This document shows positions 1-18,614 of a DNA stretch of 39,189 nt, piece after piece. Every line of letters begins with the position of its first letter. Position 1 is the first letter of the stretch. Source of the stretch: Spirochaetota bacterium (GTDB taxonomy: Bacteria; Spirochaetota; Spirochaetia; Treponematales; Breznakiellaceae); NCBI GenBank assembly GCA_023398155.1, contig JAEWSV010000338.1:1-39189 (forward strand), written 5' to 3'. The notes under the pieces were generated by a model. That model was given only the letters and a program-made list of their open reading frames with translations. It was not told the origin of the DNA and made no database searches. The position numbers and the translations under genes are program-made.

Positions 1-217
1 TCATGGCCTTGGACTTGGCGCACCCCTTCTCGTAGAATTCGCTCACGTACGCCGCGAGCGCGTCCTGCCTGAGGCGCTGGATGGGAAGCCGTTTCAGCGC
101 ATCGAGTTTGCGGGAGACCTCGGCGACTGTAACCGTGCGCGCATTTTGAGAAAATTTCCCACGTGTTTTGAGAATTATCCGTGTTTTAGCGAGTTTTGGT
201 GGGTATTTGCGTGCCAA
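1..217 (-). CDS. Partial ORF running off the left edge; function unknown (weak resemblance to the N-terminal region of tyrosine recombinases)
   Basis: Minus-strand frame is open from a TAG at 251-253 down to base 1. Translation: ...KLAKTRIILKTRGKFSQNARTVTVAEVSRKLDALKRLPIQRLRQDALAAYVSEFYEKGCAKSKAM. There is no ATG, only TTG(217) or GTG(247) without an SD, so the 5' end is uncertain and the upstream part may be non-coding. Confidence 0.3.
   Translation of the reverse strand, partial: MARKYPPKLAKTRIILKTRGKFSQNARTVTVAEVSRKLDALKRLPIQRLRQDALAAYVSEFYEKGCAKSKAM
141..215. repeat. Cluster of T-rich direct repeats at the left phage boundary; candidate transposase end-binding sites
   Basis: GCATTTTGAGAA (141-152), GTGTTTTGAGAA (163-174), GTGTTTTAGCGA (181-192), GTTTTGGTGGG (193-203) and GTATTTGCGTGC (203-214). 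Spacing is about 18-22 bp, directly after the last phage ORF. Confidence 0.35.
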
Positions 218-224
218 AGAGACA

Positions 225-452
225 TCATAAATCTTCCAGGGGAGCACCCCCTACGATCAGATCGCGGGCGGGTAACTCTGGCCAATCTACGGAATCGGGA
301 AAGCCTGGCTGTTGGGGAACGTCGCGCAGTTGCTGCCTATATTCTCTCCACCTGGCACGCTCGTTTGCTGTTAAGGTGGCGTCCGGACTCTGCGTCCAAT
401 CACAGGCCGAAAGGCGGCCATCTCGTTCAGATCGAGCTTCCTGAGATGTCAT
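225..452 (-). CDS. Tail fibre assembly/chaperone-like protein (C-terminal-domain-only, 75 aa)
   Basis: Contains DWTQSPDATLT...RWREYRQQLRDVPQQPGFPDSVDWPELP, the W-x-YR-x-LRDV...GFP..V.WP..P signature of phage tail fibre assembly proteins. Its ATG (452) overlaps the RT stop as ATGA. Confidence 0.5.
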   Translation of the reverse strand: MTSQEARSERDGRLSACDWTQSPDATLTANERARWREYRQQLRDVPQQPGFPDSVDWPELPARDLIVGGAPLEDL

Positions 453-1468
453 TGAGACCCCCCTCTGATTATAATCTTGCCTAGTATTGATTCAACAGAC
501 CTGCGGGATGATGCATGCTTAGCATGGGCCGTGAAGCTCATTATGCTCTCTCGTATCTTTTCCTGCGGAGCCATGGAGGCAACCAATTTTCGAAGCCTGC
601 GCATTGAGCAGCGGAGTATTCGTTTTCTCAGTAGTATATGGGTTGCCCAGATTCTGAAACCACAAAAGGCAATGCCGTTTCGGCCGTGGAAATAACCAGA
701 TTTAGGGTTTACGGTAAGGGACAAGTTGCTCTTGATGAATCGCTCTAGTTCCGAGGAAAGTGCTCTGATTTCCTTTTTATCATGCGCGATAACGACGAAG
801 TCGTCCATATATCTGACGTAGTATTTAATGCCAAGGCGATCCTTTGCATAATGGTCAAGGATATCGAGATATGCATTCGCCAACAGCTGAGATGTGAGTG
901 ATCCGATCGGGATCCCACAGCCAGGGCTATTTCGATTTGAATCTATGATGCGATCGAGGAGATCCAGTACTCTGAGGTCCTTGATTGTTTTCCTGACTAT
1001 TGCTTTAAGGATGTCGTGACGAACGGACGGGAAATATGATTTTATGTCTCCCTTGTAGACATAATAGGAACCCCATCGACGCTTAGCTTGCCGAGCGAAT
1101 TGTTGAACACGATGAACGGCCAGGATGGTTCCGTGGTGAATACGGCACGCGTGGGAATCGTGGATGAAACGTCGATCAAACAGAGGCTCGACAACCTGCA
1201 CAATTGCGTGGTGCACCACCCTATCTCGGAATGAAGGAGCGGAAATAAGGCGGCGCTTTGGTTCGTTGATCCAGAATTCTCGCAGCGGAAGAGGCTGCCA
1301 TGTCCCCCAAATCAATTCGTTTTGAATCGTGATGAGATTTTCCTCTAGGTTTGAAGCGAACTCAAGAGAAGCCCGTCTGTATCGCTTGCCCTTTGTTGCA
1401 GCCTTGTATGCAGCATACAGGTTTTCAAAATCAATTACCTTGTCCCAGATGTTTGATCTACAACTCAT
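449..1468 (-). CDS. DGR reverse transcriptase (339 aa from the ATG at 1468; alternative ATG at 1567)
   Basis: Motifs IPIGSLTSQLLANAYL and YVRYMDDFVV. N-terminus SNIWDKVIDFENLYAAYKAATKGKR aligns by eye with the start of Bordetella phage BPP-1 Brt. Lies next to TR and avd. Confidence 0.9.
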   Translation of the reverse strand: MSCRSNIWDKVIDFENLYAAYKAATKGKRYRRASLEFASNLEENLITIQNELIWGTWQPLPLREFWINEPKRRLISAPSFRDRVVHHAIVQVVEPLFDRRFIHDSHACRIHHGTILAVHRVQQFARQAKRRWGSYYVYKGDIKSYFPSVRHDILKAIVRKTIKDLRVLDLLDRIIDSNRNSPGCGIPIGSLTSQLLANAYLDILDHYAKDRLGIKYYVRYMDDFVVIAHDKKEIRALSSELERFIKSNLSLTVNPKSGYFHGRNGIAFCGFRIWATHILLRKRILRCSMRRLRKLVASMAPQEKIRESIMSFTAHAKHASSRRSVESILGKIIIRGGSQ

Positions 1469-1732
1469 GGAAAAGGCGCCGCGCGACGGCCAATCGGTAA
1501 GATTCGGACGCGCGCGGCTGTTGATATTTTCCCCTATCGGGGAAGGGATAAGACTCCTTTTCTCCATCGCTCTGTCCGTTCCTCCGTAAAGGAGCGGCTT
1601 CTGGCCTTGGAGTAGAGCCGGGCGAAAGCCGATGTTGCTGTTGACGTTCACACGGCGGTTGTTCAGGTTCAGTGCGGCCACCCCGGCATCAGCGCCGTTG
1701 TTCCAACTGCCGCCACGGATCGGCAAGCGCTC
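1469..1732 (-). ncRNA. DGR template RNA region (TR plus 147-nt spacer upstream of the RT start)
   Basis: TR at 1616-1732 is followed, in the transcription direction, by a 147-nt non-coding spacer before the RT ATG at 1468. BPP-1 has a comparable layout. Confidence 0.6.
1616..1732 (-). repeat. DGR template repeat (TR), 117 bp
   Basis: Identical to 2123-2239 except at 7 positions (1641, 1647, 1648, 1659, 1663, 1699, 1702). All 7 are T on the plus strand, which is A on the coding strand. Confidence 0.92.
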
Positions 1733-1752
1733 CATGTTACAGCCTTACCCCT

Positions 1753-2085
1753 TTAGGCGCTGGACTTGGTCCAGCCGCCTATCATGCGACCAATTTCCGT
1801 GAGCATTCCGCTCAATAGTTCATATTTTTTTATTGGAAGAAATTCCATTTTGAATCCGAGCCGAACGAGTATCTTTAATCGAGCGAGTTCGATGTCTGCA
1901 CGCTCTATCCACTTCCATTTGTCGCGCACAACATTCGCTCGAGCCAGGGACGCACCAACGTCAATGGACGCGCGTATCGTCTCCGCGGCGAGGGTGAATC
2001 GCTCGCTCTTGGGATATGATCGTAGCGATTCATATAGGTACAACGTCATGTCCTCCCATTTCTGATAGACCCGCATGGTTTCCAT
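1753..2085 (-). CDS. avd: DGR accessory variability determinant (Avd, about 110 aa)
   Basis: Small helical protein between VR and TR. C-terminus LTEIGRMIGGWTKS resembles the BPP-1 Avd end. The longer ORF to 2160 would overlap VR, so the ATG at 2085 (or 2076) is preferred. Confidence 0.8.
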   Translation of the reverse strand: METMRVYQKWEDMTLYLYESLRSYPKSERFTLAAETIRASIDVGASLARANVVRDKWKWIERADIELARLKILVRLGFKMEFLPIKKYELLSGMLTEIGRMIGGWTKSSA

Positions 2086-2113
2086 AATCAGATTCCAGGA
2101 CCCAGGATCCAGA

Positions 2114-5100
2114 TCACATAAAAGCCGGGCGAAAGCCGATGTTGCTGCTGACGAACACACGGCGGGTGTACAGGTTCAGTGCGGCCACCCCGGCATCAGC
2201 GCCGTAGTACCAACTGCCGCCACGGATCGGCAAGCGCTCGCCATAATTTCGTACGTACACGGCTCCTTTAGCCGCGAATGGCAGAGCGGCCGCCCCGTTA
2301 ATCTTATGGGCGATCATCAGCCGCATCATGAGCTGTCTCGTCGCTAGTGGCAGCGCGTCATAGCCTGCGCTCATCGTCACACTGCGGGCGCCGGACTCTC
2401 CGGAGATGTGCGTATAGTCGTAGTCGGGGGCCCCGGACCCTAGGCCGTTGCCGCAATCATCGGAAGGCACGGCCCTCGCTGAGGCCAAGATCGGGGCTCC
2501 GTTTATTGAGGCGACCGTATCCGTGCCGGTGGTTCCGGTCGAATCCAGATACACGCCCGTGGCAACCCATGATCCCTCCGGTTCGTCGTAATTATTGTCG
2601 AAGGTGGACGGAACATAGATTTGTCCATCGACCAGTTTCCATCCGGCCGCCCACTCCCAAACGTTACCAACAAGGTCGGCAACACCGTCGGGAGCATTGT
2701 TATGCCGCCAAGAATTTGGGCCGAGACCAAGCTTCGTCGCACCGTTTCCGCTCGCAACTCCTGGGATCGCTCCGTCGGCACGCTGAGCAGTCTCCCATAA
2801 GGCATCATGCGCTTGGCCCCAGGCCGTATTACCACGGGGCTGAGGGTGGCCTTCTTTGAGGCTCCAAAGGATGAGTCCGGCACGCTCAAGATCCGTGGCC
2901 ATGTGCCACCCGACGATGGTTGTTCCGTTATCCTTATTGGAGCAGGCCGCCTTGGCATTATCATAATTGATCGAAACCCAAGGGAATCTTCCAGGCATTG
3001 AGCAAGCGAGCCCCCCGTCATTGAATGCCTTATAGGCTCCGATGAAATACTCTGACTTTTCGACTCCACCCTTGACGAAGGCAGGGAATACACCAGATCC
3101 AAGGTCTGCGTGTATATCCTGCATCCTGAACTTGGGGACGACGTACATGATTGACGGCTTGCCGTTTTTGTCGTAGATAGCGGTTAGGCGACCGCCAGAG
3201 GATGATTCAACTTGGGATCGGAACTCGTCTTTGAGCTGGATTAGCACACTATGAAAAGGGGGCTTGGATTCATACTGCCTTAATGCAAAATCGTCAGGGA
3301 ATGCTGTAGCTGTTATCACTGCAGTAGAATTTGTTTCATTTGCTGTTGCAACGAATACACCATTACCGTAAGCAAGCGCTGACCAGTTACGCACGGCTGG
3401 CAAGGATTGCTGTGTCCAATCTATCCCATCTCGTGATGTGACTGCGTCGGCTGTTCCAAGGCTTAGTGCTACAAACAGGCCATTCCCATGGGCAACAGCC
3501 TCCCAAGACCCGGAGATTGGAATGGTTCTTTGCGTCCAGTCGATTCCATCTGGAGATGTCGCCGCGATTTCGGTCCCTGCCTTCATGATGACGAAGAGAC
3601 CATTTCCAAAGGCGATTGCATGCCATTGCCCTGAAGAAGGGAGATTTCGTTGCGTCCAAGCCTCTCCGTCCGGAGAAGTCAACGCGACAGCCCCATTATG
3701 TGGAGTAATGACAAATTTGCCGTTGCCAAAAGCGATAGCTGACAGGTATCCCACGGCAGGGAGATCCCGCTGTGTCCATGCCACTCCATTCGGAGAAGTA
3801 AAGGCACGACCATCACTGAAAGTTATTACAACGAATAGCCCATTCCCATAAGCAATGTCCCACCATACTCCTCCAGTGGGGAAAACTTGCTGTGTCCAGT
3901 TTTCTGCATCAGGAGATGTAACAATACCAGTTGGACCGTCACCAACCGCAACAAATATACCGTTTCCAAAGGCTATCCCATACCAAGCACCTGAGATTGG
4001 AATGGTTCTTTGCGTCCACACCTCTCCATCTGGGGAAGTCGCAATGACATTTGTACCGGCGAGCAAGGCTACATACATACCGTTTCCGTAAGCGATTGCT
4101 CGCCAGTATCCCGAAACGGGAAGCGTTCGCTGCAGCGCTTTCCAAACCAGCTCCGGTATCGTCCCTTCGCCGCCACCGCCTCCTCCCTCGGCCACCACGG
4201 CTTTGACGAACGCGGTCGTGGCGACCTGAGTGTTGTCCGATGCCGTGGCCGGAGTGGGGGCGGTCGGGGTGCCCGTAAAGGCGGGGCTCGCGAGGGGCGC
4301 GGCGGCCAGTGTTGTACGGGCGGCCGCCGCGTCGGCTGCGGCGAGGAGCGTCCGAGCGAACGCGGTCAGGTCGGTGGTGGAGAACGTGTCGGACCCAGTG
4401 GAGTAGATGAGCTTGTTGGCCGCGGTCGCGAGGGAAGCCAGGGCGGTAAGCGTCGCGTCCAGCGGTTGCTTCCCGCTGAGGGCCGTGGTGATGGTGGTTG
4501 CAAAGTTGGGGTCGTTACCCAACGCCGTGGCCAGTTCATTCAGGGTATCGAGCGTCGCCGGAGAGGAATTCACAAGGGCTGCCACCACGGCTTTGACGAA
4601 CGCCGTCGTCGCGACTTGGGTACTATCCGTGGCAGTTGCCGGCGTCGGGGCCGTCGGGGTGCCCGTAAAGGCGGGGCTCGCAAGAGGGGCCGCGGCGAGC
4701 GTCGTGCGGGCGGCCGCCGCATCGGCCGCGGCGAGGAGCGTCCGGGCGAAGGCGGTAAGGTCGGTGGTGGAGAACGTGTCGGACCCGGTGGCGTAGATGA
4801 GCTTGTTGGCCGCGGTCGCGAGGGCGGCAAGGGCGGTCAAGGTCGCGTCCAGCGGCTGCTTACCGCCGAGGGCCGTGGTGATCGTGGTGGCGAAGTTTGG
4901 GTCGTTGCCCAGCGCGGTGGCCAGTTCGTTCAGGGTGTCGAGCGTCGCCGGCGAGGAATTCACGAGAGCCGCGACCACGGCCTTGACGAACGCCGTCGTG
5001 GCGATCTGCGTGCTGTCGGTGGCCGTGGCCGGCGTCGGGGCGGTCGGGGTGCCTGTTAAGGCAGGGCTCGCGAGGGGGGCGGCGGCGAGCGTCGTGCGGG

Positions 5101-6265
5101 CGGCCGCCGCATCGGCCGCGGCGAGCAGCGTCCGGGCGAACGCGGTCAAATCGGTGGTGGAGAACGTGTCGGACCCGGTGGCGTAGATGAGCTTGTTGGC
5201 CGCGGTCGCGAGGGCGGCCAGGGCGGTCAGAGTCGCGTCCAGCGGCTGCTTATTGCCGAGGGCGGTAGCCATCGTGGTGGCGAAGTTGGGATCATCACCC
5301 AGCGCCGCGGCAAGCTCGTTGAGCGTATCGAGCGTCGTCGGAGCGGAATCGACGAGCGCGGCAACCACGGCCTTGACGAACGCCGTCGTCGCGATCTGGG
5401 TGGTGTTGGTTGCCGTCGCCGCGGTGGGCGCGGTTGGGACTCCCGTAAGCGCGGGGCTATTGAGAGGTGCCTTCGTGGCGTCGACGTCTTCTCGAGTCGT
5501 AGCTTCTGCCTGAAGGTCGGTCAGGCGGACGATGTGATTCGGGTCCGTGGGGACGCCAACCTTCGCCTGAGCGCCGAGGTCGCGGCACATGATCATCTCA
5601 GGATCGGCATCAGGGGTGGATCCATGGACCTCCTCCCCCTCGGCTGAGGCATGCACGTCTATGGCGTCGGTCCGATCTTGTATTTCTTGAGAAATAGCCG
5701 AGGCGAGGGCGTTGTCTCCGGCGGTTCGTGCGGACGCTTCCCCTTGCAGGTCGGTCAACCGGATGATGTGATTGGGGTCCGTGGGGACTCCCACCTTTGC
5801 CTGCGCCCCTGAATCGCGGGTCATGATCTGGCCGGCGACAGCCGCCGTCGTGGCTCCGTGAGCATTGCTACCCGTGGCGATCTTGTGCGCATCCAATTCT
5901 TCAAGGGCGGTGTCGACCTCTTCCCGCACCACGTTGTACAGCTCGGCGGCCAGGAGATCCCCGTACACATGGTAGTCCGCGTAAACGGCGGCATGCGGAG
6001 TGAGGAAGATTAGGGACCGGTAACAGGGGAATCCGGATAAATCCGACCCGATGGTATCCTGCTTGAAAAGGACATAGTCCTTGTTCAGCTCCAGGAGAGA
6101 CCCCAACGGATTGGCGGGATTCGTATAGAGGCGAAGGGTGTCGGCATAGAAAATATCATGGACCAAGAAGCACTCTTCGTTTGCGATCGGAGCCGCGATG
6201 AGTTCGCCTTGAATATCGTTTTCGACGAGAAGCCGATCGGGGTCGGTCTGAAGTAGGGTTTTCAT
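2114..6265 (-). CDS. Tail fibre / receptor-binding protein, DGR target (1383 aa)
   Basis: N-terminal fibre region, 130-aa tandem repeats with SPALTGTPTAPT...TQIATTAFV motifs and a Gly linker EGGGGGGEG. Then seven GNGxFVA...TSPDGxxWTQ blades. The C-terminal FGE-sulfatase/C-type-lectin-like domain (VADLVGNVWEW ... RGGSWYYGADAG ... GFRPAFM) contains the VR. Confidence 0.9.
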   Translation of the reverse strand: MKTLLQTDPDRLLVENDIQGELIAAPIANEECFLVHDIFYADTLRLYTNPANPLGSLLELNKDYVLFKQDTIGSDLSGFPCYRSLIFLTPHAAVYADYHVYGDLLAAELYNVVREEVDTALEELDAHKIATGSNAHGATTAAVAGQIMTRDSGAQAKVGVPTDPNHIIRLTDLQGEASARTAGDNALASAISQEIQDRTDAIDVHASAEGEEVHGSTPDADPEMIMCRDLGAQAKVGVPTDPNHIVRLTDLQAEATTREDVDATKAPLNSPALTGVPTAPTAATATNTTQIATTAFVKAVVAALVDSAPTTLDTLNELAAALGDDPNFATTMATALGNKQPLDATLTALAALATAANKLIYATGSDTFSTTDLTAFARTLLAAADAAAARTTLAAAPLASPALTGTPTAPTPATATDSTQIATTAFVKAVVAALVNSSPATLDTLNELATALGNDPNFATTITTALGGKQPLDATLTALAALATAANKLIYATGSDTFSTTDLTAFARTLLAAADAAAARTTLAAAPLASPAFTGTPTAPTPATATDSTQVATTAFVKAVVAALVNSSPATLDTLNELATALGNDPNFATTITTALSGKQPLDATLTALASLATAANKLIYSTGSDTFSTTDLTAFARTLLAAADAAAARTTLAAAPLASPAFTGTPTAPTPATASDNTQVATTAFVKAVVAEGGGGGGEGTIPELVWKALQRTLPVSGYWRAIAYGNGMYVALLAGTNVIATSPDGEVWTQRTIPISGAWYGIAFGNGIFVAVGDGPTGIVTSPDAENWTQQVFPTGGVWWDIAYGNGLFVVITFSDGRAFTSPNGVAWTQRDLPAVGYLSAIAFGNGKFVITPHNGAVALTSPDGEAWTQRNLPSSGQWHAIAFGNGLFVIMKAGTEIAATSPDGIDWTQRTIPISGSWEAVAHGNGLFVALSLGTADAVTSRDGIDWTQQSLPAVRNWSALAYGNGVFVATANETNSTAVITATAFPDDFALRQYESKPPFHSVLIQLKDEFRSQVESSSGGRLTAIYDKNGKPSIMYVVPKFRMQDIHADLGSGVFPAFVKGGVEKSEYFIGAYKAFNDGGLACSMPGRFPWVSINYDNAKAACSNKDNGTTIVGWHMATDLERAGLILWSLKEGHPQPRGNTAWGQAHDALWETAQRADGAIPGVASGNGATKLGLGPNSWRHNNAPDGVADLVGNVWEWAAGWKLVDGQIYVPSTFDNNYDEPEGSWVATGVYLDSTGTTGTDTVASINGAPILASARAVPSDDCGNGLGSGAPDYDYTHISGESGARSVTMSAGYDALPLATRQLMMRLMIAHKINGAAALPFAAKGAVYVRNYGERLPIRGGSWYYGADAGVAALNLYTRRVFVSSNIGFRPAFM
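2123..2239 (-). repeat. DGR variable repeat (VR), last 39 codons of the fibre gene
   Basis: 117 bp matching TR. The 7 differences are at 2148, 2154, 2155, 2166, 2170, 2206 and 2209. TR-encoded N residues become Y, Y, Y, T, F and S in VR. Confidence 0.92.
3300..4150 (-). repeat. Seven tandem ~46-aa (~138-bp) coding repeats, beta-propeller-like (Asp-box-like TSPDGxxWTQ)
   Basis: Seven copies of W..IA[YF]GNG.FVA....G.....TSPDG..WTQ, each with one GNG motif. This stretch is visibly more AT-rich than the neighbouring fibre sequence. Confidence 0.7.
4191..5465 (-). repeat. 390-bp (130-aa) tandem coding repeats, 3 full units plus a partial fourth
   Basis: Antisense ORFs 4407-4796, 4797-5186 and 5187-5513 all begin MSLLAAVA with an exact 390-bp period. 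The sense repeat is SPA[LF]TG.PTAPT.ATA..TQ.ATTAFVKAVVAALV...LDTLNELA.ALG.DPNFATT... Confidence 0.9.
5513..5830 (-). repeat. Two imperfect ~85-bp direct repeats (5513-5596 and 5746-5830) in the fibre N-terminal region
   Basis: They encode IMCRDLGAQAKVGVPTDPNHIVRLTDLQ and IMTRDSGAQAKVGVPTDPNHIIRLTDLQ. Confidence 0.75.
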
Positions 6266-8577
6266 ACGGGGTCTCCTTTCCTTTCAACGACGCCTGGTCG
6301 ATCTTTCACGGTTCCGCCGCCCACGACGCGGCTATCCCGATTGTGCTTCCGGACTTCCAGGATCTTGTACGCCTGGGACAGGCCCGCGCCGAACTCCAGG
6401 CTGTGCTCGTCGATGATGCCGTGGACCCATCCGTAGCCGCGCATGGACTCGACGGCAACGTGATCCCCGACGTCCATACGGGGATCAGCCCACGGCGTAA
6501 TCGATTGCCGGGCGCGGAATGACCGATAGAAGGCCGCGGACGATCGGGCTATCTCGGTCGCCAGAGATACGGAGGGGATCCCGGATAGGGTGAGGTCCTT
6601 GACGATTTCTCCCCTCTCGCGGATGCCTTCTTCGTCCCGGAAGCGCAGTGTCTTTGCCGCGCCCGATTCCACGAGCCGGCGGCCATAGATCGACACTCCG
6701 AACGTCTGCTCCGTCGCGAAGTAGTTCCAGACCTTGACGAGGCACCCGTAGCTGTTCGGTTCGATGGTGTACTCGAACTGGCCCGGCTTCTGCCGGTTTC
6801 CCGGAACGATGGACGTGATCGCAATCTTGTCGGACAGCTCTACGACGAACTCGTAAGGGACGTTGGGGCTGTTCCGAACCGAGATGTCATCGCTCTCAAT
6901 CTGGGCTCCGTACTCCGCCGGCCGGGCGGGGATGATCTGCTCGTCGTCCAGCAGCTTGATGATCTTGGCGTTGTCCAAGACCATCACGGCGACCGTGAGC
7001 TGCTCATCCAGTGAGGTATTCCCAAAATTCCAGACCTTGACCGTGATGGTTCCGTCGCCGTTGTCCTCGGCCTCGTATTCGAGGCTCTCCCACGCGAAGG
7101 CGTCGGAGAACTCGACGCGGAGGTAGCTGTCCGGCTTGGCGATGGTGAATTCCCATCCTGGCGGGAGGCCGGCGCCGGGCTCCCGGTCGTAGGTGGGAAC
7201 GACGGTTTGTTCTGGGGGGTACTCCTGAACGGGGATCTCGATGTACCGCCGCGTGAACGTCTCCTCCGCGGACTCGCCCTCGTCGAAGGACAGCGTGGTG
7301 TACTGCACCGTGACCACCGTCGGGATCTTGTCCTGGGATTCCGAGGCAAGCTTGCTGTACTCGTCCGCGGAGAACCACCGTCGCGGGTACCTCGACCTAC
7401 CGCGCATCGACTCGGCCCGCTGCACGACCAGTTGATGGCCATCGGTGGACACGTAGCAAAGGGCTCCGGTGATGATGCAGAGGCTGTTGAGCGCAGATCC
7501 GACGGTGCCGGAATAGGAAAAGAGCGGGAGGACGACGGCCCGCAGCCGCTCGTCGATCGATTTGATCCCGAGCCCGATCCGCGTCGCCAGGTAGCGGAAC
7601 GCGTCGACCGCGGAGACCGATTCGGCGATGGCCGCGTCGATCGGCCGGTCCTTCCGGAACGCTATGAGGTCCGACGCCTTGATCTTCACGTCCGCGTCAT
7701 CCTCTGAAGACTCGATGCTTTGAGTGTAGAACGTGGACGAGAAGACATCCTCGTCGGCCAAGGACAAGCGGACCTCCACGGGAATACCCGGCTGGAGGGA
7801 CCCGTACAGTTCGGAGTCGGAATTGTAGAAGTCGAACTCCCGCGCGGCGTTGAATAGCGTGAGGCTCAAAGAGCGGATGATCACGCGGCCGATGGTCGCT
7901 TCCTTATTCTCCGCCCGCTTCGTCTCGATCTTCCAGTTGACCAGGTCGTCGGCCGTGAAGGATCGAACGAGGGAGGGCGAAAACAGGAGGATCCACGGCC
8001 GCAGGGATGGCGTCCCCCGGTGTATTTCCAGCTCGATGTACGAGGCCTTCCGGGCCGTCTCCGTAGCGGTGAACGCCTCGACTATCTCAGCGGTCAAATT
8101 CCCTACGATTTCCCGAAGAGCGAGGACCGACCGGTCCGCGGCGTAGATCCTCAGCGTAGCGTCGATGATGATCCTGGACGGGTCGGTCACGATCTTGAAG
8201 GTCCGTATCGTCCGCGGAGAAAAGCGGATCCCGACCAGATCGTTGAGCGAACCGTCGGCCCCGGCCAGAGCGCCGATGTACCCGACATGGGACTTCTGAA
8301 AACTCCGCCGCGGTTGATACCCGGACGACGCGTGGATGTTCTGTACGGACGGGAATAGCCGCTCCGGGAGTGATCTCCCGAGAAAGAAGCGGTCGCGATG
8401 GTAGAAGGTGAATCCGTCGGTGATTTGATCGGGGATGCATCCATCGATCGCGTTCGGGGCCAGCACCGCAAGCGAGGGGTCGAACCTGAGACTCGCGAAG
8501 TCGACGGTCACCGCCGTAGCGAACTGCCGACCGTCTCCGCGTATGGCTGCGTCGAGCGCCTCGGAGGTGCGAATCAC
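6262..8577 (-). CDS. Large tail-tip / baseplate-like structural protein (771 aa)
   Basis: Lies between the tape-measure-distal genes and the fibre. GTGA overlap upstream and ATGA overlap with the fibre start. No motif recognised. Confidence 0.5.
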   Translation of the reverse strand: MIRTSEALDAAIRGDGRQFATAVTVDFASLRFDPSLAVLAPNAIDGCIPDQITDGFTFYHRDRFFLGRSLPERLFPSVQNIHASSGYQPRRSFQKSHVGYIGALAGADGSLNDLVGIRFSPRTIRTFKIVTDPSRIIIDATLRIYAADRSVLALREIVGNLTAEIVEAFTATETARKASYIELEIHRGTPSLRPWILLFSPSLVRSFTADDLVNWKIETKRAENKEATIGRVIIRSLSLTLFNAAREFDFYNSDSELYGSLQPGIPVEVRLSLADEDVFSSTFYTQSIESSEDDADVKIKASDLIAFRKDRPIDAAIAESVSAVDAFRYLATRIGLGIKSIDERLRAVVLPLFSYSGTVGSALNSLCIITGALCYVSTDGHQLVVQRAESMRGRSRYPRRWFSADEYSKLASESQDKIPTVVTVQYTTLSFDEGESAEETFTRRYIEIPVQEYPPEQTVVPTYDREPGAGLPPGWEFTIAKPDSYLRVEFSDAFAWESLEYEAEDNGDGTITVKVWNFGNTSLDEQLTVAVMVLDNAKIIKLLDDEQIIPARPAEYGAQIESDDISVRNSPNVPYEFVVELSDKIAITSIVPGNRQKPGQFEYTIEPNSYGCLVKVWNYFATEQTFGVSIYGRRLVESGAAKTLRFRDEEGIRERGEIVKDLTLSGIPSVSLATEIARSSAAFYRSFRARQSITPWADPRMDVGDHVAVESMRGYGWVHGIIDEHSLEFGAGLSQAYKILEVRKHNRDSRVVGGGTVKDRPGVVERKGDPV

Positions 8578-9137
8578 GGGAGCGGGACCCTCTCGTAGAT
8601 TTCGATGGCGTAGTTCTCTACACGAAGCTCGTCACCGACCGTGAGCGCGACACTCGTCTGCCGCGGGCCGTTTACGGAAATGGAGGCGTCCGTGTTCGGC
8701 GCCTTTCTGGTCTCGCCTTTTCCGTATGAAACGTTGCCGGAACCGGCGCGGCTATTGTGCGCGACGTTGTGGCCGTGGTCCACGAGCATCCAGCCCTGAG
8801 GCCCGCCCTCAAAAGCGACGGTGCGGTCCCCTACGACGCGGAAGTACTTATTCGCGTAGAACGAGGAGATATGCCGCCAGGCGGTACCCGGCCACTTATC
8901 TTGCGGCAGAGGATCCGTTTGGACGACCTCCGAGCCGAGCGTGACGCCGGGGAGGCGCACGTACTTGCCGCCGATGGGCGGGCATCCCCAGTTGTCCTTG
9001 AGCTCCGCGAGGGCCTCGCCGATGAGCTTCACGCTCTTCACGAGGTTGTTGAAGTTGTCGTCGGTGACGGCGGCGTCTTCCAGGAGTTCGGCCGGAACGA
9101 CCGTGGCGAGCTGGTCGAGAATATCGGGCAACGTCAT
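8574..9137 (-). CDS. Tail-associated protein (187 aa), function unknown
   Basis: Coding-like ORF in the tail-tip block, coupled to the downstream gene by GTGA. Confidence 0.45.
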   Translation of the reverse strand: MTLPDILDQLATVVPAELLEDAAVTDDNFNNLVKSVKLIGEALAELKDNWGCPPIGGKYVRLPGVTLGSEVVQTDPLPQDKWPGTAWRHISSFYANKYFRVVGDRTVAFEGGPQGWMLVDHGHNVAHNSRAGSGNVSYGKGETRKAPNTDASISVNGPRQTSVALTVGDELRVENYAIEIYERVPLP

Positions 9138-9140
9138 TCG

Positions 9141-9545
9141 CTACTCCAATTCGAGAGTCACGGACTCGTAGATGAATAAGCCCAACGATCGGTTGCGGGG
9201 CTTATATTTGACCGGGTTCACCAGGTCTATGGCATGGCCGACATGGCCGGATGTTTCCTTGTGGAGGTAGATGACGATCGACTCCGCCGTCGCGGCGGCG
9301 TCGTATATGGAGAGTAGATCGTCGAGCGCGTCCTGCATGGCGACGGCCCACGTGAGCTTGAACTTAGTGGAAAGCCGGATCAAATCCTTCCGCTTCCGCC
9401 CGGACGCCATGGTCTTGACGTTGGCGGTTTCCACGGGAGTCGGCTCCACGGAATATCCGAATGGGATAAGGAAGGCCGTCCCGTCGATGGAAAGAAAATC
9501 CCGGTGCAGCCCGGAGGCGATGAACTCAGCCGTCGTCACCGTCAT
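9141..9545 (-). CDS. Minor/distal tail protein (134 aa)
   Basis: Immediately downstream of the tape measure with an ATGA overlap at 9542-9545. Confidence 0.45.
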   Translation of the reverse strand: MTVTTAEFIASGLHRDFLSIDGTAFLIPFGYSVEPTPVETANVKTMASGRKRKDLIRLSTKFKLTWAVAMQDALDDLLSIYDAAATAESIVIYLHKETSGHVGHAIDLVNPVKYKPRNRSLGLFIYESVTLELE

Positions 9546-12500
9546 TCCCCCATGTAGTAATTCCGCTTCGCTTCCTCGACGATCGAAAGAAGCTCCCGAT
9601 CGGCATCGCGGATCGCGCCCATGACGTCATCCCGCGTCAGGCCATCAGTATCCTGGAAGTTGAGCTGGAAAACTGGAGCGTAGCTAAAGCCTCCCCCCGC
9701 GCCTTTCCGGTCGATGCCGGCCGCGCGGAACATCGCGTCGATGTTCTCCGTGGTAATCGGCAAGTACAGCTCGGGGATGCCGGCCTCGGCGGTGATGGCC
9801 GGCGCCCCGGAAGACATCGTGATGTTAGTACCGCCGGCCTGCGGCATGAAGATGCCGCCCGCGGCGAGCTTCTTCGGGGGAGCGGGAAGCGGCTGCGGCG
9901 TATACTCGGCAGGCTCCGGTGCCCCCGCGGCGACACCGGCCTGGGCGCCGGCGAGGACGGCGGCGACCGTGAAGGCGGCAGCGGCCGGCGGGTTCCACCA
10001 GTTGGCCGCGGCCTTCGCGACGTTCTCGGCCGCCTGCAGGGTGAGGTTCAATACGGTAGACGCCTTTTCCCACTTCGCCTTTTCGATCGCGGCGGCAGCG
10101 GCCGCGGTCCCGGCGGCGTTCTCCGTTTCAATCTGCGAAACGGTGAATTCGTATTCGATCCGGTTGCGCTCGTTGAGGAGGTCGTTCTCGGCCTTGAGCT
10201 GCTCGGCCGCACGCTTCTTGTCCTCCTGGTCCTTCTTCTTGGCTTCCTGGGCCTCGCGCTTTTTCTTCCGCTCATCCTCGAGCTGCTTCTCCAGTTCGCG
10301 GAGTCTCCGGATGTTCGTCTCTTCGGAAATGGAGGTCTCGAGATCCGCGATGGTTCGCGCGTACTCTTCCTGCTGGGTCTGGTACTGCCGCTCTTCGTAG
10401 GCCTCCTGAGCGGCCTCGTTCTCCTCGCGGTGCGCCTCGCGCATCTCGTTCAATTGGTCATCGAGGGCCGATAGAGCGGCGTTCTTTTCCTGTTCTATTT
10501 CCGCAAGGCGCTCCGCGTATTCTTGCGCGTCACGTTCGGCCTGGTTGCCGATGAGCCCCGTGGCGATGTTCGCGACGGACGAGAACACCTCGGTGATCTT
10601 CCCGCCGATGACGTCGATCTTGGCGGCTATCTTATCGAAGAGTGAAGACGTGCTCTTCTCGATCTGCTTCTTCACGTCCACAGTCGCCGCTCCGAGTTCA
10701 AGGATCTCGCCCCGGAGGGCGGCGGCCCGCTGCGCGTCGGCGGCGGATCCGGAGGCCATGAGCGTGTTGTATTCGCCCATGAGGGAGCGCTGTTTTTCGA
10801 TGAGGGCGTTGCGTTTCTCCTGGAGGGCGTTACGCTCGATCTCCTTGTCCGTCTTCCCGAGGAGGCCGGTCTCCTTCTTGAGCGCGATTTCGCGGTCGAT
10901 GGCGGCTTCCGTTTTCTCGGCCGTACCGCCTATTCTTTCAAGGTCAACGGCGAGGAGACGGCGGGAGCTTTCCTCCTGCACGGCCATGGCTTCGGCACGG
11001 CGGGCGTCGGATTTCGCGAGGCCCTCCGTGATGGCCGAGAGGCGGGAGCGGATGGCGACGGCCGACGTCTCGGATAGGTTGGTATCGGCGAGGCGCAAGT
11101 TCAGCGCGGTCTGCTCGGCGGAGAGGCCCTTCGCGTTGTTGAGCTCCGCGTCCGCGGCGCTCTTGGCCGCCTCCTGGATATTGCGGAGCGCCTGCTCCAC
11201 GGTGAGGCCGGAGGCGGAGAGGAAGGTGATCGAGGCGTCGAGCTCGAGGCCGACGGACTCGGCGGAGAGCTCCTTGAGGCGGGCGCGGGTCGTGGCGAGT
11301 TCGGCGGCGATCTTGCCGTAGCCCCCCGTAATGCTGGAATCGAGGGAAGCGGCCATCGCCTTGGACACATCCGCCCCTCCCTTGCGGGCGGCCACGTCCT
11401 CCTGGACGAAGGTATGGAGGAGCGCCAGGCGCTTCCCCTGCGCCTCCTTCTCGATCGCGTACAGATCCTCGCCGTTCTTGGCCGCGAGCGATCGACGGAC
11501 GGCATACTCGTCATCCAGATCCTGGAGGCGCTCTGCCCTCGTCTTGTTAGAGCTCTTGGCAGGATCGGGATCGCCGGCGGGCGCACCCCCGTCCCGTGGA
11601 GGAGGAGGGGCCCCACCTGGAGAACCAGACCCGGCATCAAGAAGCTTTTCTCTCGCTTCCATCACAACAATGAGCTGCCTCGCGAGATCGCCGGCTTTAT
11701 CCCTTGCTCGCCCTAGATCTATTTCGATGGTCCTGGCAATCCCTTGGGATTCTCTTGGGTCATTCGACTTTCGAGCCTTTGCAAGCCGCTCTTCCAGAAG
11801 CTCAATTTTCTGAGTCGTCTCGAAATGCTTTTTTGCCAACTCAACTTGCTGCTTGTCCAGCGCCGCGAGCTGCTCCTTCGCGCGGGCCTCCGCGGTCTTC
11901 TCCAGGAGATCGTTGAGCGTCCCCTGGGCGGCAGCCTGGGCAAGGATCTCCGCGGTGAGCTCCGGATACAGCCGCTTGAGGTCGCCGACGAGTTCGGCCA
12001 TGCGCTCCATGTCGGTCGCGGTTTTGCCGGTTTTGGCGTTGAGCGAAGCGTACTCCTGGGCGAGGGGAGCCGCCTGCGCCTTGAGGCCGATGACCGCGTC
12101 CGTATTGTCGATGACGGCCTGCTTTGCCCGCTCCGCTGCCTTGGCGAATTCCGTGACGGTCGCGACGGCGACGGTGATGCCGACGATGGCGGCCCCCAGG
12201 GGATTCGCCGCAGCCGCCCCGGACAGCGCGATCATGGCCGCCCGGGCGGCGATGAGGCCTTTGGTGAACCCGGCGACGGCCGCCGTCGTGGCGAGCGCTA
12301 CGACCACGACCTTGCCGATGGAGACGATATTGGCGAGCGTCTCGCGATCCAGGTTCGCCAGGGCTTCGGATATGGAGACGAGTGGGCCGAGAAGGTCCTG
12401 GGCCGACACGAGCACTTCATCGCCGAGGCGCTGCGCGAAGACGACCGCGTTCAACCTCGCCTGCGTGAGGCCATCCCCGAACTTGTTGACGCCATCGGTA

Positions 12501-13489
12501 GATGCGGAAAAGGCGGTATCGAGGGCCCCGGCTGCCGTACCCATATCGCCGAGATCCTTCGTGAACTTCTCCGCGCCCTGCCCTGTCAGGTAGAGGGCTA
12601 TCTGTCCGCCTTCGATTGAACCGAAGAGATTCGTGACGGAGACCCCGGTCTCGTCCGCGTAGCCCTTGAGCGCCTGCAGGGCGCCCTGGAAGCCGCCGAA
12701 CTTCTGGATGAGCTCGGTTCCGCTCGTTACGCCGAGCGCCTTGAACGCGGCGTTCAGGGTATCGGTTCCGCGCAGGAGCTCCGCTTGAGCGGCCGCCGTC
12801 TTGGTCGCGACTTCGGCAGCACCCCCGATGACGCCCGTTCCGGCGGAGAAGACGGCGAAGAGCTCGGCCTGAGAAACGCCGAGGGTGGCCGAAAGCGAGG
12901 TGACGCGCTGGATGGAGGTGGCGAGCTCGGGGAAGGTGGTCTGGCCATTCCGGACCGTGATGAACGCGAGATCGGCGACCTGGCGCTGGGCGACGGCCGA
13001 CGTATCTCCGTACGCCTTGGTCACCGCGGACAGAAGGTTGATCGAGTCCGTCGTGGTGGCCGCGCCGGCGGCGGCAGCTTTCGCGGAGATCTCGAGCTTC
13101 TCTATCGTGTCCGGAGCATCGCCGTAGGCGGAGATGACCTGGTAGGCGCCGGATACCAGGTCATCGGTCGTCTTCCGCACTTCGGGAGACAGGTCCTGGA
13201 TGGCGGCCTTGAGTTCCTGGATTCGCGCGGTCTGGCCGGGGATGAGCGTCTCGACCTGGGAAAGGGCGGCGTTGTAGTCGGCCGCCATCTTACCGACCGC
13301 GATACCGACAGCGACGATCGCGGTGGTTGCGATCGCGGACTGCTTGGCGATGTCGCCGAGGATCCGGTTCGCCGCTTCCGTCTTCTCGTTGAAGTCGTCC
13401 AGGGCCTTGTCGGCGTCCTGGAAGCCGGCCGCGAGTCCGGTTGCGTCTCCGATGATCTTGTAGATGACTTCGCGGGCGGTTATAGCCAT
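9542..13489 (-). CDS. Tail tape measure protein (1315 aa)
   Basis: Very long Ala/Glu/Lys-rich protein with predicted coiled-coil character and hydrophobic segments. Lies directly after the tail chaperone pair. Confidence 0.85.
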   Translation of the reverse strand: MAITAREVIYKIIGDATGLAAGFQDADKALDDFNEKTEAANRILGDIAKQSAIATTAIVAVGIAVGKMAADYNAALSQVETLIPGQTARIQELKAAIQDLSPEVRKTTDDLVSGAYQVISAYGDAPDTIEKLEISAKAAAAGAATTTDSINLLSAVTKAYGDTSAVAQRQVADLAFITVRNGQTTFPELATSIQRVTSLSATLGVSQAELFAVFSAGTGVIGGAAEVATKTAAAQAELLRGTDTLNAAFKALGVTSGTELIQKFGGFQGALQALKGYADETGVSVTNLFGSIEGGQIALYLTGQGAEKFTKDLGDMGTAAGALDTAFSASTDGVNKFGDGLTQARLNAVVFAQRLGDEVLVSAQDLLGPLVSISEALANLDRETLANIVSIGKVVVVALATTAAVAGFTKGLIAARAAMIALSGAAAANPLGAAIVGITVAVATVTEFAKAAERAKQAVIDNTDAVIGLKAQAAPLAQEYASLNAKTGKTATDMERMAELVGDLKRLYPELTAEILAQAAAQGTLNDLLEKTAEARAKEQLAALDKQQVELAKKHFETTQKIELLEERLAKARKSNDPRESQGIARTIEIDLGRARDKAGDLARQLIVVMEAREKLLDAGSGSPGGAPPPPRDGGAPAGDPDPAKSSNKTRAERLQDLDDEYAVRRSLAAKNGEDLYAIEKEAQGKRLALLHTFVQEDVAARKGGADVSKAMAASLDSSITGGYGKIAAELATTRARLKELSAESVGLELDASITFLSASGLTVEQALRNIQEAAKSAADAELNNAKGLSAEQTALNLRLADTNLSETSAVAIRSRLSAITEGLAKSDARRAEAMAVQEESSRRLLAVDLERIGGTAEKTEAAIDREIALKKETGLLGKTDKEIERNALQEKRNALIEKQRSLMGEYNTLMASGSAADAQRAAALRGEILELGAATVDVKKQIEKSTSSLFDKIAAKIDVIGGKITEVFSSVANIATGLIGNQAERDAQEYAERLAEIEQEKNAALSALDDQLNEMREAHREENEAAQEAYEERQYQTQQEEYARTIADLETSISEETNIRRLRELEKQLEDERKKKREAQEAKKKDQEDKKRAAEQLKAENDLLNERNRIEYEFTVSQIETENAAGTAAAAAAIEKAKWEKASTVLNLTLQAAENVAKAAANWWNPPAAAAFTVAAVLAGAQAGVAAGAPEPAEYTPQPLPAPPKKLAAGGIFMPQAGGTNITMSSGAPAITAEAGIPELYLPITTENIDAMFRAAGIDRKGAGGGFSYAPVFQLNFQDTDGLTRDDVMGAIRDADRELLSIVEEAKRNYYMGE

Positions 13490-13716
13490 TACAGGTACAC
13501 CTCGTATAGTTCTCGCTCTTTCCCGGAGGAGAGCGGATCCCGCTCATCGGCGGAGGCTTTACCGAATCCGCGGCGCAGCAGGTCGAACGCCACCCCGTTG
13601 CGGAGCTTCCGGTTGATCGTCTCGATCGCCCAATGACGCAGAACGTGATCCTCCGTCACTCCATACAGGACGGAGAGGCGATCTAGCGTTTCGGCCCAGT
13701 CATGTTTTTTTTTGAG
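13489..13716 (-). CDS. -1 frame extension of the tail assembly chaperone (G-T-like fusion product)
   Basis: The -1 frame is open from the A9 run to a TAA at 13491-13489: LKKKHDWAETLDRLSVLYGVTEDHVLRHWAIETINRKLRNGVAFDLLRRGFGKASADERDPLSSGKERELYEVYL. That stop overlaps the tape measure ATG as TAATG. Confidence 0.6.
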   Translation of the reverse strand, partial: LKKKHDWAETLDRLSVLYGVTEDHVLRHWAIETINRKLRNGVAFDLLRRGFGKASADERDPLSSGKERELYEVYL

Positions 13717-14111
13717 GCGTCGCCGTCTACTTCGCCGGATCGTGAGCGCGCGGAATTCTCGATTATCGAACGGACGATTTCCGAGAAGAAGATGTCCACC
13801 ATGTCCTTGTTCGCCTCCATGGCGATCGTCTCGCGCGTGACCTCCGGATAGAAGAACGAGCAGAATCCGGCCACGAAGGTTATGGTGTCGTCCGTGATCT
13901 CACGGTTCCGTTCTCTCGCGTAGCGGTCCAGGTCCTCTTTCGATTCCGAACCGGCCGCCGCGGCCTGCTTCGCCCTGAGCGCGTTGAACGCTTCCATGAC
14001 CGGGATGGCCGCCCCGGAGGGGATGTAGCCGAGCTCGTACTCTTTCCCCAGGAACCGGACCTTCCGGGAGGGTGCGCGAAGGGCGTCGAGGTTGAGGATC
14101 TCCGTCTGCAT
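13683..14111 (-). CDS. Tail assembly chaperone (142 aa)
   Basis: Lies between the major tail protein and the tape measure. An A9 slippery run sits 7 codons before its stop. Confidence 0.65.
   Translation of the reverse strand: MQTEILNLDALRAPSRKVRFLGKEYELGYIPSGAAIPVMEAFNALRAKQAAAAGSESKEDLDRYARERNREITDDTITFVAGFCSFFYPEVTRETIAMEANKDMVDIFFSEIVRSIIENSARSRSGEVDGDASKKNMTGPKR
13704..13713 (-). promoter_or_regulatory. Programmed -1 ribosomal frameshift slippery site (A AAA AAA AAC)
   Basis: Nine consecutive T on the plus strand (13705-13713). The zero frame reads TCA AAA AAA AAC. Confidence 0.6.
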
Positions 14112-14127
14112 CGATGGTCTCCTTGGA

Positions 14128-14162
14128 GCCGGGGCGGCCGGTAGTGATCCGGCCGCCCCGGC
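14128..14162 (-). other. Perfect 14-bp GC-rich stem-loop between the major tail and chaperone genes
   Basis: GCCGGGGCGGCCGG tagtgat CCGGCCGCCCCGGC with no U-run. Likely an mRNA stabiliser or attenuator that sets the tube:chaperone ratio. Confidence 0.55.
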
Positions 14163-14183
14163 GGATTCTCAGCTTCGCGCCGA

Positions 14184-15056
14184 TCAGACTTCCTGCTTCT
14201 CGCGCATGAGGCTCTTGGGCTCCATGTCCGCGAGGATGGCCATGTCCGGGTGCGGGGTGAACTCGAACGAGAAGGGGATTTCGGCCACGGTGTCCGCGTC
14301 GTTCTTGCTCTTCAGCGTGATCACGTCCTCGCTCGTGCAGAAGCCGTACGGAAGCTCCCAGGTCCTGGAGATGATGCGCCCGTCGTCGGCCTTCCGCTTG
14401 TTGGTGAGCCGCATCGCGAGATTCTTGGAGACGCCGGCCGAACCGTGATAGAGGGTGTAGGACTTAGCGGGGGTCACGTCGTAGGTGATCCGGACGTCCT
14501 TGGCCGCGTCGTAGTTTCCCGTGTCGGCCGGGGAGATGATCACGACGAAGAAGGCTCCCGCGTAGGGCACGACCGCGAAGTCGAGCCCCTCCACGAGGTT
14601 GACCAGGCCGGCGCCCTCCGACTGCTTCACCACGAGGTTCGCGGGCTCCGCGCCGTCGTGGTTGAACTTGGAGAGCGGGATCGGGACGTTCTTCTGGACG
14701 GTGCCCACCGGGTGGGTGTCCGTGACCGTCGCAAGGACGCCCGGTTCCGATTCCACGGTCACGATACCCGCCATGACCTTAGCGATGACCGGGAGGTGGC
14801 GCTCGAGGAGACTGAACTCCACGGTCACCTTCTTGTCGGTCTGGCCGCGCAGGGGAACGATGCCGTTGTCCGCCTTGACCTCGCTCTTCGTGGAGGAGGG
14901 CGTGATCTTGACGCCGCGGGCCAGGCCGAGGTCCAGGAGATCGGACAGGGTGTAGTTCTTCGCGACCGTGTCGATGGCGACGGGCGTCTGGGTGATCTCG
15001 ATCTTCGCCGAGCCGAGGGTCATCGCGTTGGGATTCTGCGACTTGGTCAAATCCAT
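14184..15056 (-). CDS. Major tail (tube) protein, siphovirus type (290 aa)
   Basis: Lies upstream of the chaperone/tape measure genes. No sheath gene is present. Confidence 0.55.
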   Translation of the reverse strand: MDLTKSQNPNAMTLGSAKIEITQTPVAIDTVAKNYTLSDLLDLGLARGVKITPSSTKSEVKADNGIVPLRGQTDKKVTVEFSLLERHLPVIAKVMAGIVTVESEPGVLATVTDTHPVGTVQKNVPIPLSKFNHDGAEPANLVVKQSEGAGLVNLVEGLDFAVVPYAGAFFVVIISPADTGNYDAAKDVRITYDVTPAKSYTLYHGSAGVSKNLAMRLTNKRKADDGRIISRTWELPYGFCTSEDVITLKSKNDADTVAEIPFSFEFTPHPDMAILADMEPKSLMREKQEV

Positions 15057-15073
15057 GATCTTGCTCCTTCGGA

Positions 15074-15529
15074 CTACGCGTCCGTGGTGACGGCCAGGGC
15101 CGCCGCCTCGTAATCAAATTCGATCTCGACGAGCCAATGCTCGTCGTAGCTGTACGACCTCTCGTCGGCGAGATCCGTGAAGAGCTCGTCATCCTCTCGG
15201 ATCGCCTGATGGTACGCGACGGCCCACGCGCCGGGAGCGACTGCGATACCGCCCTGTTCCTCGTCGAACCAGAGGGCGAGCTTCAGGGAAACATCCAGCG
15301 CGTCGGATACGCCCCGATCCGACGGCGGAATCTCCCCGCTCGCCGAAGCCCGGAGGCGGAGCCGCGTCCGGCCGTTGCCGACTACCACGGGATGCGGTAT
15401 CGGGACCAGGCGGACATGGAAGCGCTCGGGCTGCAGCGTGGACGGTTCCAGGATCACCTGCACTCCGCAGTCTTGCGCGAGCTTGGCCTTGTAGGCGTTC
15501 AAGACGGCGATCCAATTGCGGTAGCTCAT
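15074..15529 (-). CDS. Tail completion / neck protein (151 aa)
   Basis: Real start is the ATG at 15529, in ATGA overlap with the upstream gene. The 434-aa track ORF is an artefactual 5' extension. Confidence 0.45.
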   Translation of the reverse strand: MSYRNWIAVLNAYKAKLAQDCGVQVILEPSTLQPERFHVRLVPIPHPVVVGNGRTRLRLRASASGEIPPSDRGVSDALDVSLKLALWFDEEQGGIAVAPGAWAVAYHQAIREDDELFTDLADERSYSYDEHWLVEIEFDYEAAALAVTTDA

Positions 15530-16595: not shown

Positions 16596-16640
16596 GACGC
16601 CTCCCTCCGCTGGATTTCGCTAGTGTTTCGTTCCGACGCT

Positions 16641-17087: not shown

Positions 17088-17108
17088 GATGTCTCCTTTA
17101 ATTAGAAA

Positions 17109-18224: not shown

Positions 18225-18239
18225 GTCGTTGCCGCCTCC

Positions 18240-18605: not shown

Positions 18606-18614
18606 GTCGTCTCC

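Follow-up and report, generated by a model that had tools for sequence, protein, structure and literature searches.

The closest described systems to the locus analysed here are the diversity-generating retroelement (DGR) of Bordetella phage BPP-1, which is a P22-like podophage whereas the host here is a transposable siphophage, and the DGRs of several Mu-like phages. Our analysis covered a 39,189-nt stretch from a Spirochaetota assembly (GenBank GCA_023398155.1, contig JAEWSV010000338.1, positions 1–39,189 of the forward strand; this whole stretch is the window, and coordinates refer to it), in which we read positions 225–6265 on the minus strand, with high confidence, as the receptor-binding module of a 38.9-kb transposable (Mu-like) siphophage that carries a complete DGR. 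An initial annotation of the window had raised the possibility that a DGR in a Mu-like phage was undescribed, and this is refuted by the literature: DGRs in Mu-like Firmicute prophages are credited to Toussaint 2013 (Res Microbiol, as cited in PMC5883640), Hankyphage has a Mu-like transposase and a DGR with 117-bp adenine-mismatched repeats (PMC6199706, PMC12135933), Chromohalobacter phage YPCBV-1 is a Mu-like phage with a DGR (PMC9769972), and the RefSeq annotation of Bacillus phage BalMu-1 (NC_030945) lists an FGE-type target, an 'Avd protein of DGR' and a reverse transcriptase (RT) near the genome end. As DGRs in Mu-like phages are already established, the element is a sequence-divergent addition to a known kind, and it leaves knowledge of DGRs or Mu-like phages in general unchanged. 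The details which distinguish it are incremental (a TaqVP-type domain on a very long fibre, a chaperone gene coupled to the RT, an RT-14 spacer and a position at the transposon end), and it stands as one well-resolved case of tropism-switching machinery on a transposable phage with its parts mapped to the nucleotide.

The resemblance to BPP-1 extends to most parts of the element. The order mtd–avd–template repeat (TR)–brt is the same, the variable repeat (VR) is at the C-terminus of a receptor-binding protein with a C-type lectin (CLec) fold, Avd is present, the TR is followed at once by a structured spacer and then the RT, the TR is AAC-rich and differs from the VR at adenines only, and the closest solved homologue of the RT is 8ub7, which we take to be the BPP-1 enzyme (bRT) from its length and residue numbering (the entry title is only 'Reverse transcriptase'). 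The two elements differ in their spacers, which are RT-10 in BPP-1 (PMC5737381) and RT-14 here, and in their targets, with the 381-amino acid Mtd there and a 1383-amino acid fibre with a TaqVP-type domain here to which Mtd is a weak fold match. The element described here also has neither a hairpin downstream of the VR nor a separate IMH/IMH* stretch (initiation of mutagenic homing), and in this phage a chaperone gene is coupled to the RT.

BalMu-1 and the Toussaint 2013 prophages are Mu-like and transposable with a DGR beside the tail genes near the genome end, and BalMu-1 has an FGE/SUMF1-type target, Avd, TR, RT-14 RNA and RT in this order, with an RT which is 41% identical to the one found here. 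BalMu-1 has no nucleotide similarity to this phage and its host belongs to a different phylum; its target is a separate 316-amino acid protein whereas here it is the end of a long fibre, its RT is followed by lysis genes and not by a fibre chaperone and the phage terminus, and the phage described here differs further in having a genome split into two divergent arms. Hankyphage (from Bacteroides) and YPCBV-1 are also transposable or Mu-like temperate phages with a DGR aimed at the C-terminus of a tail fibre, and share with this phage 117-bp repeats with adenine-only mismatches (Hankyphage) or an FGE-type target, bAvd and bRT, which are the last three ORFs of YPCBV-1. They differ in that protein similarity is distant only (the YPCBV-1 RT is 38% identical), and in their hosts and structural modules.

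Closer relatives were sought by several routes. Megablast of both window halves against GenBank phages gave no match, and RT scans of IMG/VR, GTDB genomes and metagenome contigs gave best identities of 49–52% with none of these matches having other phage genes in common; no relative in any of these four collections was closer than about 50% by RT identity. The exact TR/VR pattern with adenines masked had 0 matches in viral and metagenome contigs, a scan for relatives based on the protease gave no match, and protein searches with the C-terminal 400 and the C-terminal 130 amino acids of the target returned nothing above 62% identity (even the protein itself, which is in the collection, was missed). 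Related loci retain the order variable protein–Avd–TR–RT, and by crude local alignment a TR-like repeat was seen upstream of the RT in 167 of 240 loci, with at least 90% of mismatches at TR adenines in 87 of these 167.

Repeats, enzymes and target of the DGR

The TR (1616–1732, minus strand) and VR (2123–2239, minus strand; codons 1342–1380 of the target) are 117-bp direct repeats with seven mismatches only, as determined by an alignment of 1596–1752 with 2103–2259 followed by a script. The mismatch columns are TR 1641, 1647, 1648, 1659, 1663, 1699 and 1702, which correspond to VR 2148, 2154, 2155, 2166, 2170, 2206 and 2209, and at all seven the TR base is T on the plus strand and therefore A on the coding (minus) strand, with the VR plus-strand bases being, in order, C, A, A, G, A, A and A. 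In the frame of the 1383-amino acid open reading frame (ORF), six TR AAC codons become TAC, TAC, TAC, ACC, TTC and AGC in the VR (Asn to Tyr, Tyr, Tyr, Thr, Phe and Ser). The TR has 23 adenines amongst its 117 bases, and the probability of seven out of seven random mismatches falling on A is 4.9e-6 (hypergeometric). Alignment of 1616–1732 with 2123–2239, the script and the coding frame thus confirmed the seven positions, the strict adenine specificity and the six codon changes given in the initial annotation, as well as the abrupt stop of homology it had described on the VR 3' side; homology is in fact lost sharply at both edges, and the 3' end reads ...CGCCCGGCT. The VR had been placed at the end of the fibre gene, which is correct, and in its last 39 codons, which is not, as Phe and Met codons plus the stop still follow the VR. 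One TR and one VR were the only copies recovered when the whole window was searched for repeats and when it was searched with the 3' end that the two have in common. At least one past diversification event is shown, as read from the two repeats, by the seven A-site substitutions in six AAC codons.

The TR adenines are distributed over eight AAC codons and seven other A-bearing codons, no substitution at any of the 23 can reach a stop codon, and the sequence space they define is about 7e13 DNA variants and 1e13 protein variants. By composition the TR has the design typical of DGRs, being AAC-rich with no reachable stop. The cassette order is target–avd–TR–147-nt spacer–RT, all on the minus strand, and the BPP-1-like arrangement that had been claimed is correct by the mapped ORFs and repeats.

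The RT (449–1468, minus strand; 339 amino acids) contains both of the motifs first noted in it, IGSLTSQLLANAYL and YMDD, and matches Pfam RVT_1 (E 3.6e-19), phrog_1423 (E 2e-124) and, by tblastn against GenBank phages, BPP-1 brt (36% identity, E 1e-48). Its best PDB match is 8ub7_A, a 328-amino acid reverse transcriptase aligned over residues 5–321 (E 2.3e-52); group II RTs come next at about 9e-23, with Drt3a and the CRISPR-associated (Cas6-RT-Cas1) RTs no better than 1e-7. Amongst solved structures, 8ub7 is thus ahead of the group II RTs by 30 orders of magnitude in E value. The motif IGSLTSQ fits the DGR signature [I/V/L]GxxxSQ, unlike the QGxxxSP found in group II and retroviral RTs (PMC7826257), and the counterparts of bRT Arg74 and Ile181, residues demonstrated to promote adenine mutagenesis (PMC7826257), are conserved in the alignment with 8ub7. 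These comparisons place the RT in the DGR clade and not in a group II or defence class, in agreement with the annotation. Avd, the accessory variability determinant (1753–2085, minus strand; 110 amino acids), matches the NCBIfam equivalog NF033474 DivGenRetAVD at 97 bits against a cut-off of 80, Pfam bAvd (E 2.8e-22) and the PHROG 'Avd protein of DGR' (E 2e-26).

The repeats might be explained instead as the remnant of an ordinary duplication or gene conversion with a coincidental adenine pattern, lying near an RT of some other class (group II intron, retron or defence). This could draw on NCBIfam, which is without a DGR-RT model and in which the best match to the RT is a group II RT/maturase at 139 of 300 bits, below the cut-off, but we consider it extremely improbable given the adenine restriction (P = 4.9e-6), the dedicated Avd equivalog match, an RT which is much nearer to the BPP-1-type enzyme than to group II or defence-type RTs, and the IGxxxSQ rather than QGxxxSP signature (PMC7826257). 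In addition, no intron RNA domains and no retron msr/msd were found, with an RT-14 RNA at the TR boundary instead, and the same architecture is seen in dozens of related loci.

The RT is followed by a tail-fibre assembly chaperone gene (225–452, minus strand; 75 amino acids; Pfam PF16778 Phage_tail_APC, E 8e-25, with PHROG support) whose ATG overlaps the RT stop codon (ATGA), an arrangement which indicates that the chaperone is translationally coupled to the RT. Because the chaperone comes directly after the RT, the avd–TR–RT cassette sits between the fibre gene and its chaperone. A mechanical ORF at 449–1735 begins at an ATG just before the TR and reads without a stop across the TR and the RT-14 RNA and on into the RT, and gene callers report its product as a 428-amino acid RT. 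We place the true start of the RT at 1468, the point from which it aligns with bRT, and regard the longer call as a probable annotation artefact. Because the gene callers had used the 428-amino acid ORF, a search for the exact 339-amino acid RT gave no match.

The target (2114–6265, minus strand) is a 1383-amino acid tail fibre and DGR variable protein, identified from its ORF, its matches to tail-fibre PHROG families and its position downstream of the tape-measure gene and the gene for a 771-amino acid distal tail protein. It consists of N-terminal fibre repeats, a middle region of 40-amino acid (propeller-like) repeats and a C-terminal TaqVP-type CLec domain, with the N-terminal 683 amino acids matching tail-fibre PHROG families (phrog_2631, E about 1e-154). 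The C-terminal domain (2117–3250, minus strand; about 378 amino acids) aligns end to end with PDB 5vf4_A (E 2.5e-55, phmmer against PDB), which is the Thermus aquaticus DGR variable protein TaqVP (bioRxiv 10.1101/432187), and matches phrog_2889 (E 2e-97). An AlphaFold2 model built with 47 homologues had a mean pLDDT of 90.5, and the top Foldseek match of the modelled domain was TaqVP (TM 0.80–0.84), with Treponema TvpA (2y3c), FGE-type proteins and Bordetella Mtd (1yu4) ranked lower. In the structural alignment the last 378 amino acids share 34% identity with TaqVP from end to end, including the VR segment RGG.W..GA.AG; the two differ in that TaqVP stands alone as a bacterial protein of about 385 amino acids, whereas here the domain is fused behind about 1000 amino acids of fibre and propeller-like repeats. 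By sequence and predicted fold, the VR lies inside a CLec ligand-binding-type fold and ends two codons before the target stop.

Across the 47 homologous variable domains, the columns matching A-bearing TR codons had a mean entropy of 2.69 bits compared with 0.81 for other VR columns (Mann-Whitney p = 1.6e-6), and in this alignment these columns are hypervariable. The claim of a complete DGR with BPP-1-like order on the C-terminus of a Mu-like phage tail-fibre gene held up in the tests of the RT, Avd, target fold, phage genes and phage termini.

The fibre gene also contains tandem repeats of two separate systems, within 3407–4040 and 4186–5470. One system has four 390-nt units which encode 130-amino acid Ala/Thr-rich fibre repeats (78–88% identical), and the other has at least six 120-nt units encoding 40-amino acid W..IAYGNG.FV repeats, which are propeller-like with weak Pfam beta-propeller matches.

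The RT-14 spacer RNA and the proposed route to VR replacement

An Rfam scan identified a full-length structured RNA of family RF02921 (RT-14 RNA) at 1479–1617 on the minus strand, which lies precisely in the gap between the TR's last bases and the start of the RT, with a score of 59.1 bits against a gathering threshold of 48.1 and with model positions 1–144 of 144 covered. RT-14 is one of nineteen motifs near RT genes reported by Weinberg et al. (PMC5737381), of which only RT-10, the BPP-1 spacer, was linked to a DGR while the remaining motifs were left as speculation (PMC5737381); no link between RT-14 and DGRs was found in the literature we searched. RT-14 was immediately 3' of the TR in 16 of the 31 related DGR loci scanned (11/18 plus 5/13; loci with RT-14 between TR and RT include L001, L003, L012, L014, L015, L017, L018, L024 and L250), and is also present in BalMu-1. 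Where both the RNA and the repeats had been mapped, RT-14 started 0–8 nt from the end of TR/VR homology in nine out of nine loci. Compensatory changes were seen at 19 of 21 predicted RT-14 pairs amongst 15 instances, and the first stem covaries by eye (CTCC/GGAG, ATCCCG/CGGGAT, GCCCC/GGGGC and GTTCG/CGAAC), after which a conserved AAAGG follows.

BPP-1 primes its cDNA from the 2'-OH of Sp A56, in a spacer that is folded back on the 3' region of the TR (PMC6182149). The adenosine run after the first RT-14 stem corresponds here to spacer nucleotides 55–58, a suggestive parallel to the BPP-1 priming site, and by this analogy, with the first stem at the TR 3' boundary, the conserved A-run after that stem may be a branch or priming site. 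We lean slightly towards the joint proposition that RT-14 serves as the self-priming spacer RNA in a large clade of DGRs, with this phage and BalMu-1 among its members, and that there is a split-arm lineage of transposable phages. With RT-14, an orphan Rfam family tied here to the TR–RT spacer of many DGRs, there is a defined RNA with which to ask whether self-priming operates as in BPP-1.

By homology with BPP-1 (PMC6182149, PMC7826257), we propose that the avd–TR–spacer region would be transcribed and that an RT–Avd complex would bind the structured spacer, which would then fold back beside the TR 3' boundary and prime cDNA from an internal 2'-OH, likely in or beside the A-run at about nucleotides 55–58. 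The RT would copy the TR faithfully save opposite adenines, where any base could be inserted (again by homology with BPP-1), and the cDNA would replace the VR, anchored at the common GC-rich 3' end (...TTTCGCCCGGCT). The resulting variants of the ligand-binding surface would permit the phage to switch receptor specificity.

VR variation and DGR activity

The same phage was located on six ENA metagenome contigs by an exact look-up of the Avd protein (the window itself corresponds to positions 47–39235 of ERZ27268874 k141_55622). The TR was identical on all six, and between contigs of the phage there were two single-nucleotide polymorphisms (SNPs) over about 25.6 kb, one in the RT gene and one in the VR. 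The latter is on L256, which is 651 bp long and was assembled from a different sample in the same series of studies, where GAT becomes GGT (Asp to Gly) at L256 position 24, equivalent to window position 2196; it falls on a TR-adenine position and the seven older substitutions are retained. We estimate the chance of at least one of two random SNPs hitting a TR-adenine site as about 1%.

Several observations weigh against a complete and functioning DGR with an RT-14 priming spacer. The target-recognition set of BPP-1 consists of a GC-rich IMH at the VR 3' end plus a downstream hairpin or cruciform, and here no BPP-1-type hairpin or cruciform was found downstream of the VR (DNA fold z = +0.83, with a negative inverted-repeat search), nor was a distinct IMH/IMH* pair found past the TR/VR homology boundary, so that the GC-rich end common to TR and VR, CGCCCGGC, is the sole candidate anchor; the hairpin and the IMH/IMH* pair are a feature of BPP-1-like elements and not of all DGRs. 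The first RT-14 stem is poor in the Rfam register in this sequence, with three of seven pairs non-standard (an alternative register gives five pairs), and the priming site is placed by analogy with BPP-1 alone. The VR has the same seven substitutions in all five assemblies which carry the whole VR, from at least three insertion sites, and these five gave no positive sign of current activity. The 90% cluster of the target protein has a single member (among 15 billion proteins), and the L256 change may be an ordinary point mutation or low-coverage error, since full-length homing would be expected to overwrite the older substitutions.

These observations bear on the alternative that the DGR is intact but silent or very rarely firing, with the seven substitutions being an old event and the VR effectively fixed in the lineage, which we regard as unlikely. 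It would account for the identical VR in five of five whole-VR assemblies, which were drawn from several samples and represent no fewer than three insertion sites, for the single-member target cluster, and for the lack of a hairpin downstream of the VR. Against this, the contigs are essentially clonal (two SNPs in about 25.6 kb) and therefore little time has elapsed, and minority variants are hidden in consensus assemblies; none of the RT, Avd, TR and RT-14 has decayed, and the catalytic and signature residues are conserved; the complete lack of non-adenine drift between TR and VR over 117 bp argues for recent homogenisation; and one of the two SNPs is at a VR adenine site. We retain the reading of a complete DGR that would diversify the fibre, and note that metagenome read sets with the phage at several insertion sites could reveal whether VR variation obeys the TR-adenine rule.

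Two features of the assemblies are also of note. L256 starts inside the VR, which could mean that the assembly graph broke on VR microdiversity. At the end of another contig (L253 5354–5499), the TR and its upstream context are joined directly to VR-downstream sequence before the contig ends; the repeats most likely caused this join during assembly, and in principle it could also reflect a VR into which unmutated TR information had been copied.

The host phage and its termini

Comparison of the window with other contigs of the same phage (including L251, L252, L254, L255, L257 and L258) showed that they cease to be identical at 128 (DGR side) and 39062 (F side), beyond each of which lie three distinct flanks, and the phage therefore transposes. 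It extends over 128–39062 (38,935 bp) with ends of 5'-TGTAA...TTACA-3', and the terminus on the DGR side (128–224) reads 5'-TGTAACCG... inward from 128 with repeats of CGYRTTTTGAGAA at 140–174, leaving 97 bp between the end of the chaperone gene and the terminus. Local alignment of the window edges found no terminal inverted repeats; the true ends lie inside the window. A right edge set by the tag gene starting at 39027 was considered and rejected, as the contig comparison puts the junction at 39062/39063.

On the plus strand the phage encodes a MuA-type DDE transposase (24797–26707; PF02914, PF09299), a MuB-like ATPase (26711–27646; AAA protein), Gam (PF07352), gp27 (PF11985), TerL, a Mu-type portal (PF06074) and F (PF04233), and on the minus strand a CI/LexA-like repressor, a protease/scaffold, a decoration protein, a lambda-E-type capsid, the tape measure, the fibre and the DGR. 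The host element is a true transposable (Mu-like) phage. Its genes are laid out in two arms, 225–19676 on the minus strand and 23574–38799 on the plus strand; the plus arm ends with the small terminase-like gp27, TerL, Mu portal and Mu F, and the minus arm runs from protease/scaffold, decoration protein and lambda-E-type capsid through tail, fibre and DGR toward the opposite end. This layout is unusual for a Mu-like phage and looks like a lineage trait: in two relatives with 67% portal identity (L243 and L244), F is likewise the last phage gene and host genes come directly after. An inverted late arm produced by assembly was rejected on the basis of the position of F in these relatives and the matching contig termini.

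A broader form of this objection, in which the contig is misassembled or chimeric and the position of the DGR in a Mu-like phage is an artefact, is in our view very unlikely. The host sequence at the two ends of the window comes from unrelated genes (aminotransferase-like at the left, tag at the right), with GCGAC and CTGGT at the junctions and no common 5-bp duplication; the head and tail genes are on the strand opposite to terminase–portal–F; and the end of L253 runs from the TR into VR-downstream sequence. All three fit a chimera, but the 7 kb on the DGR side are 100% identical in two contigs of about 40 kb that were assembled independently from separate samples, the contigs stop matching at one fixed nucleotide on each side (128 and 39062) and these give the ends TGTAA...TTACA, in the relatives with 67% portal identity, too, no phage gene separates Mu F from host genes, and unmatched flanks are expected of a replicating transposable phage. 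The window contig probably joins flanks from different insertions, and because of this the 5-bp duplication test is inapplicable to this assembly.

The G+C content is 50–58% in the DGR cassette, CLec domain and propeller-like repeats compared with 59–67% in the rest of the structural arm (1–4000 versus 4000–19000), a mosaic which suggests horizontal acquisition of the variable-protein/DGR module; the G+C content of the terminase–portal–F region is also low, at 52–54%. Between the two arms is a low-GC accessory region (19700–23600) with a 169-amino acid ORF (19816–20325) which has no family match, an N-terminus resembling a signal peptide by eye and a strong terminator-like hairpin after it. 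The repressor at 20464–21195 matches PHROG CI-like repressor and UmuD-like families, and a repeat is found three times, starting at 22308, 22800 and 23465, with copies 63–89% identical over 38–130 nt and a GC-rich hairpin first. Near the right terminus, 38871–38930 contains the motif GTAACAnAAAGGTAACAGA and, after it, an inverted repeat with 13-bp arms that match perfectly, AACAGCTGGAAAA N16 TTTTCCAGCTGTT (38889–38901 / 38918–38930). The motif is common to two distant relatives (L241 and L242), where it lies about 570 bp after F; motif and repeat are candidate end-binding or regulatory sites some 130–190 bp inside the terminus.

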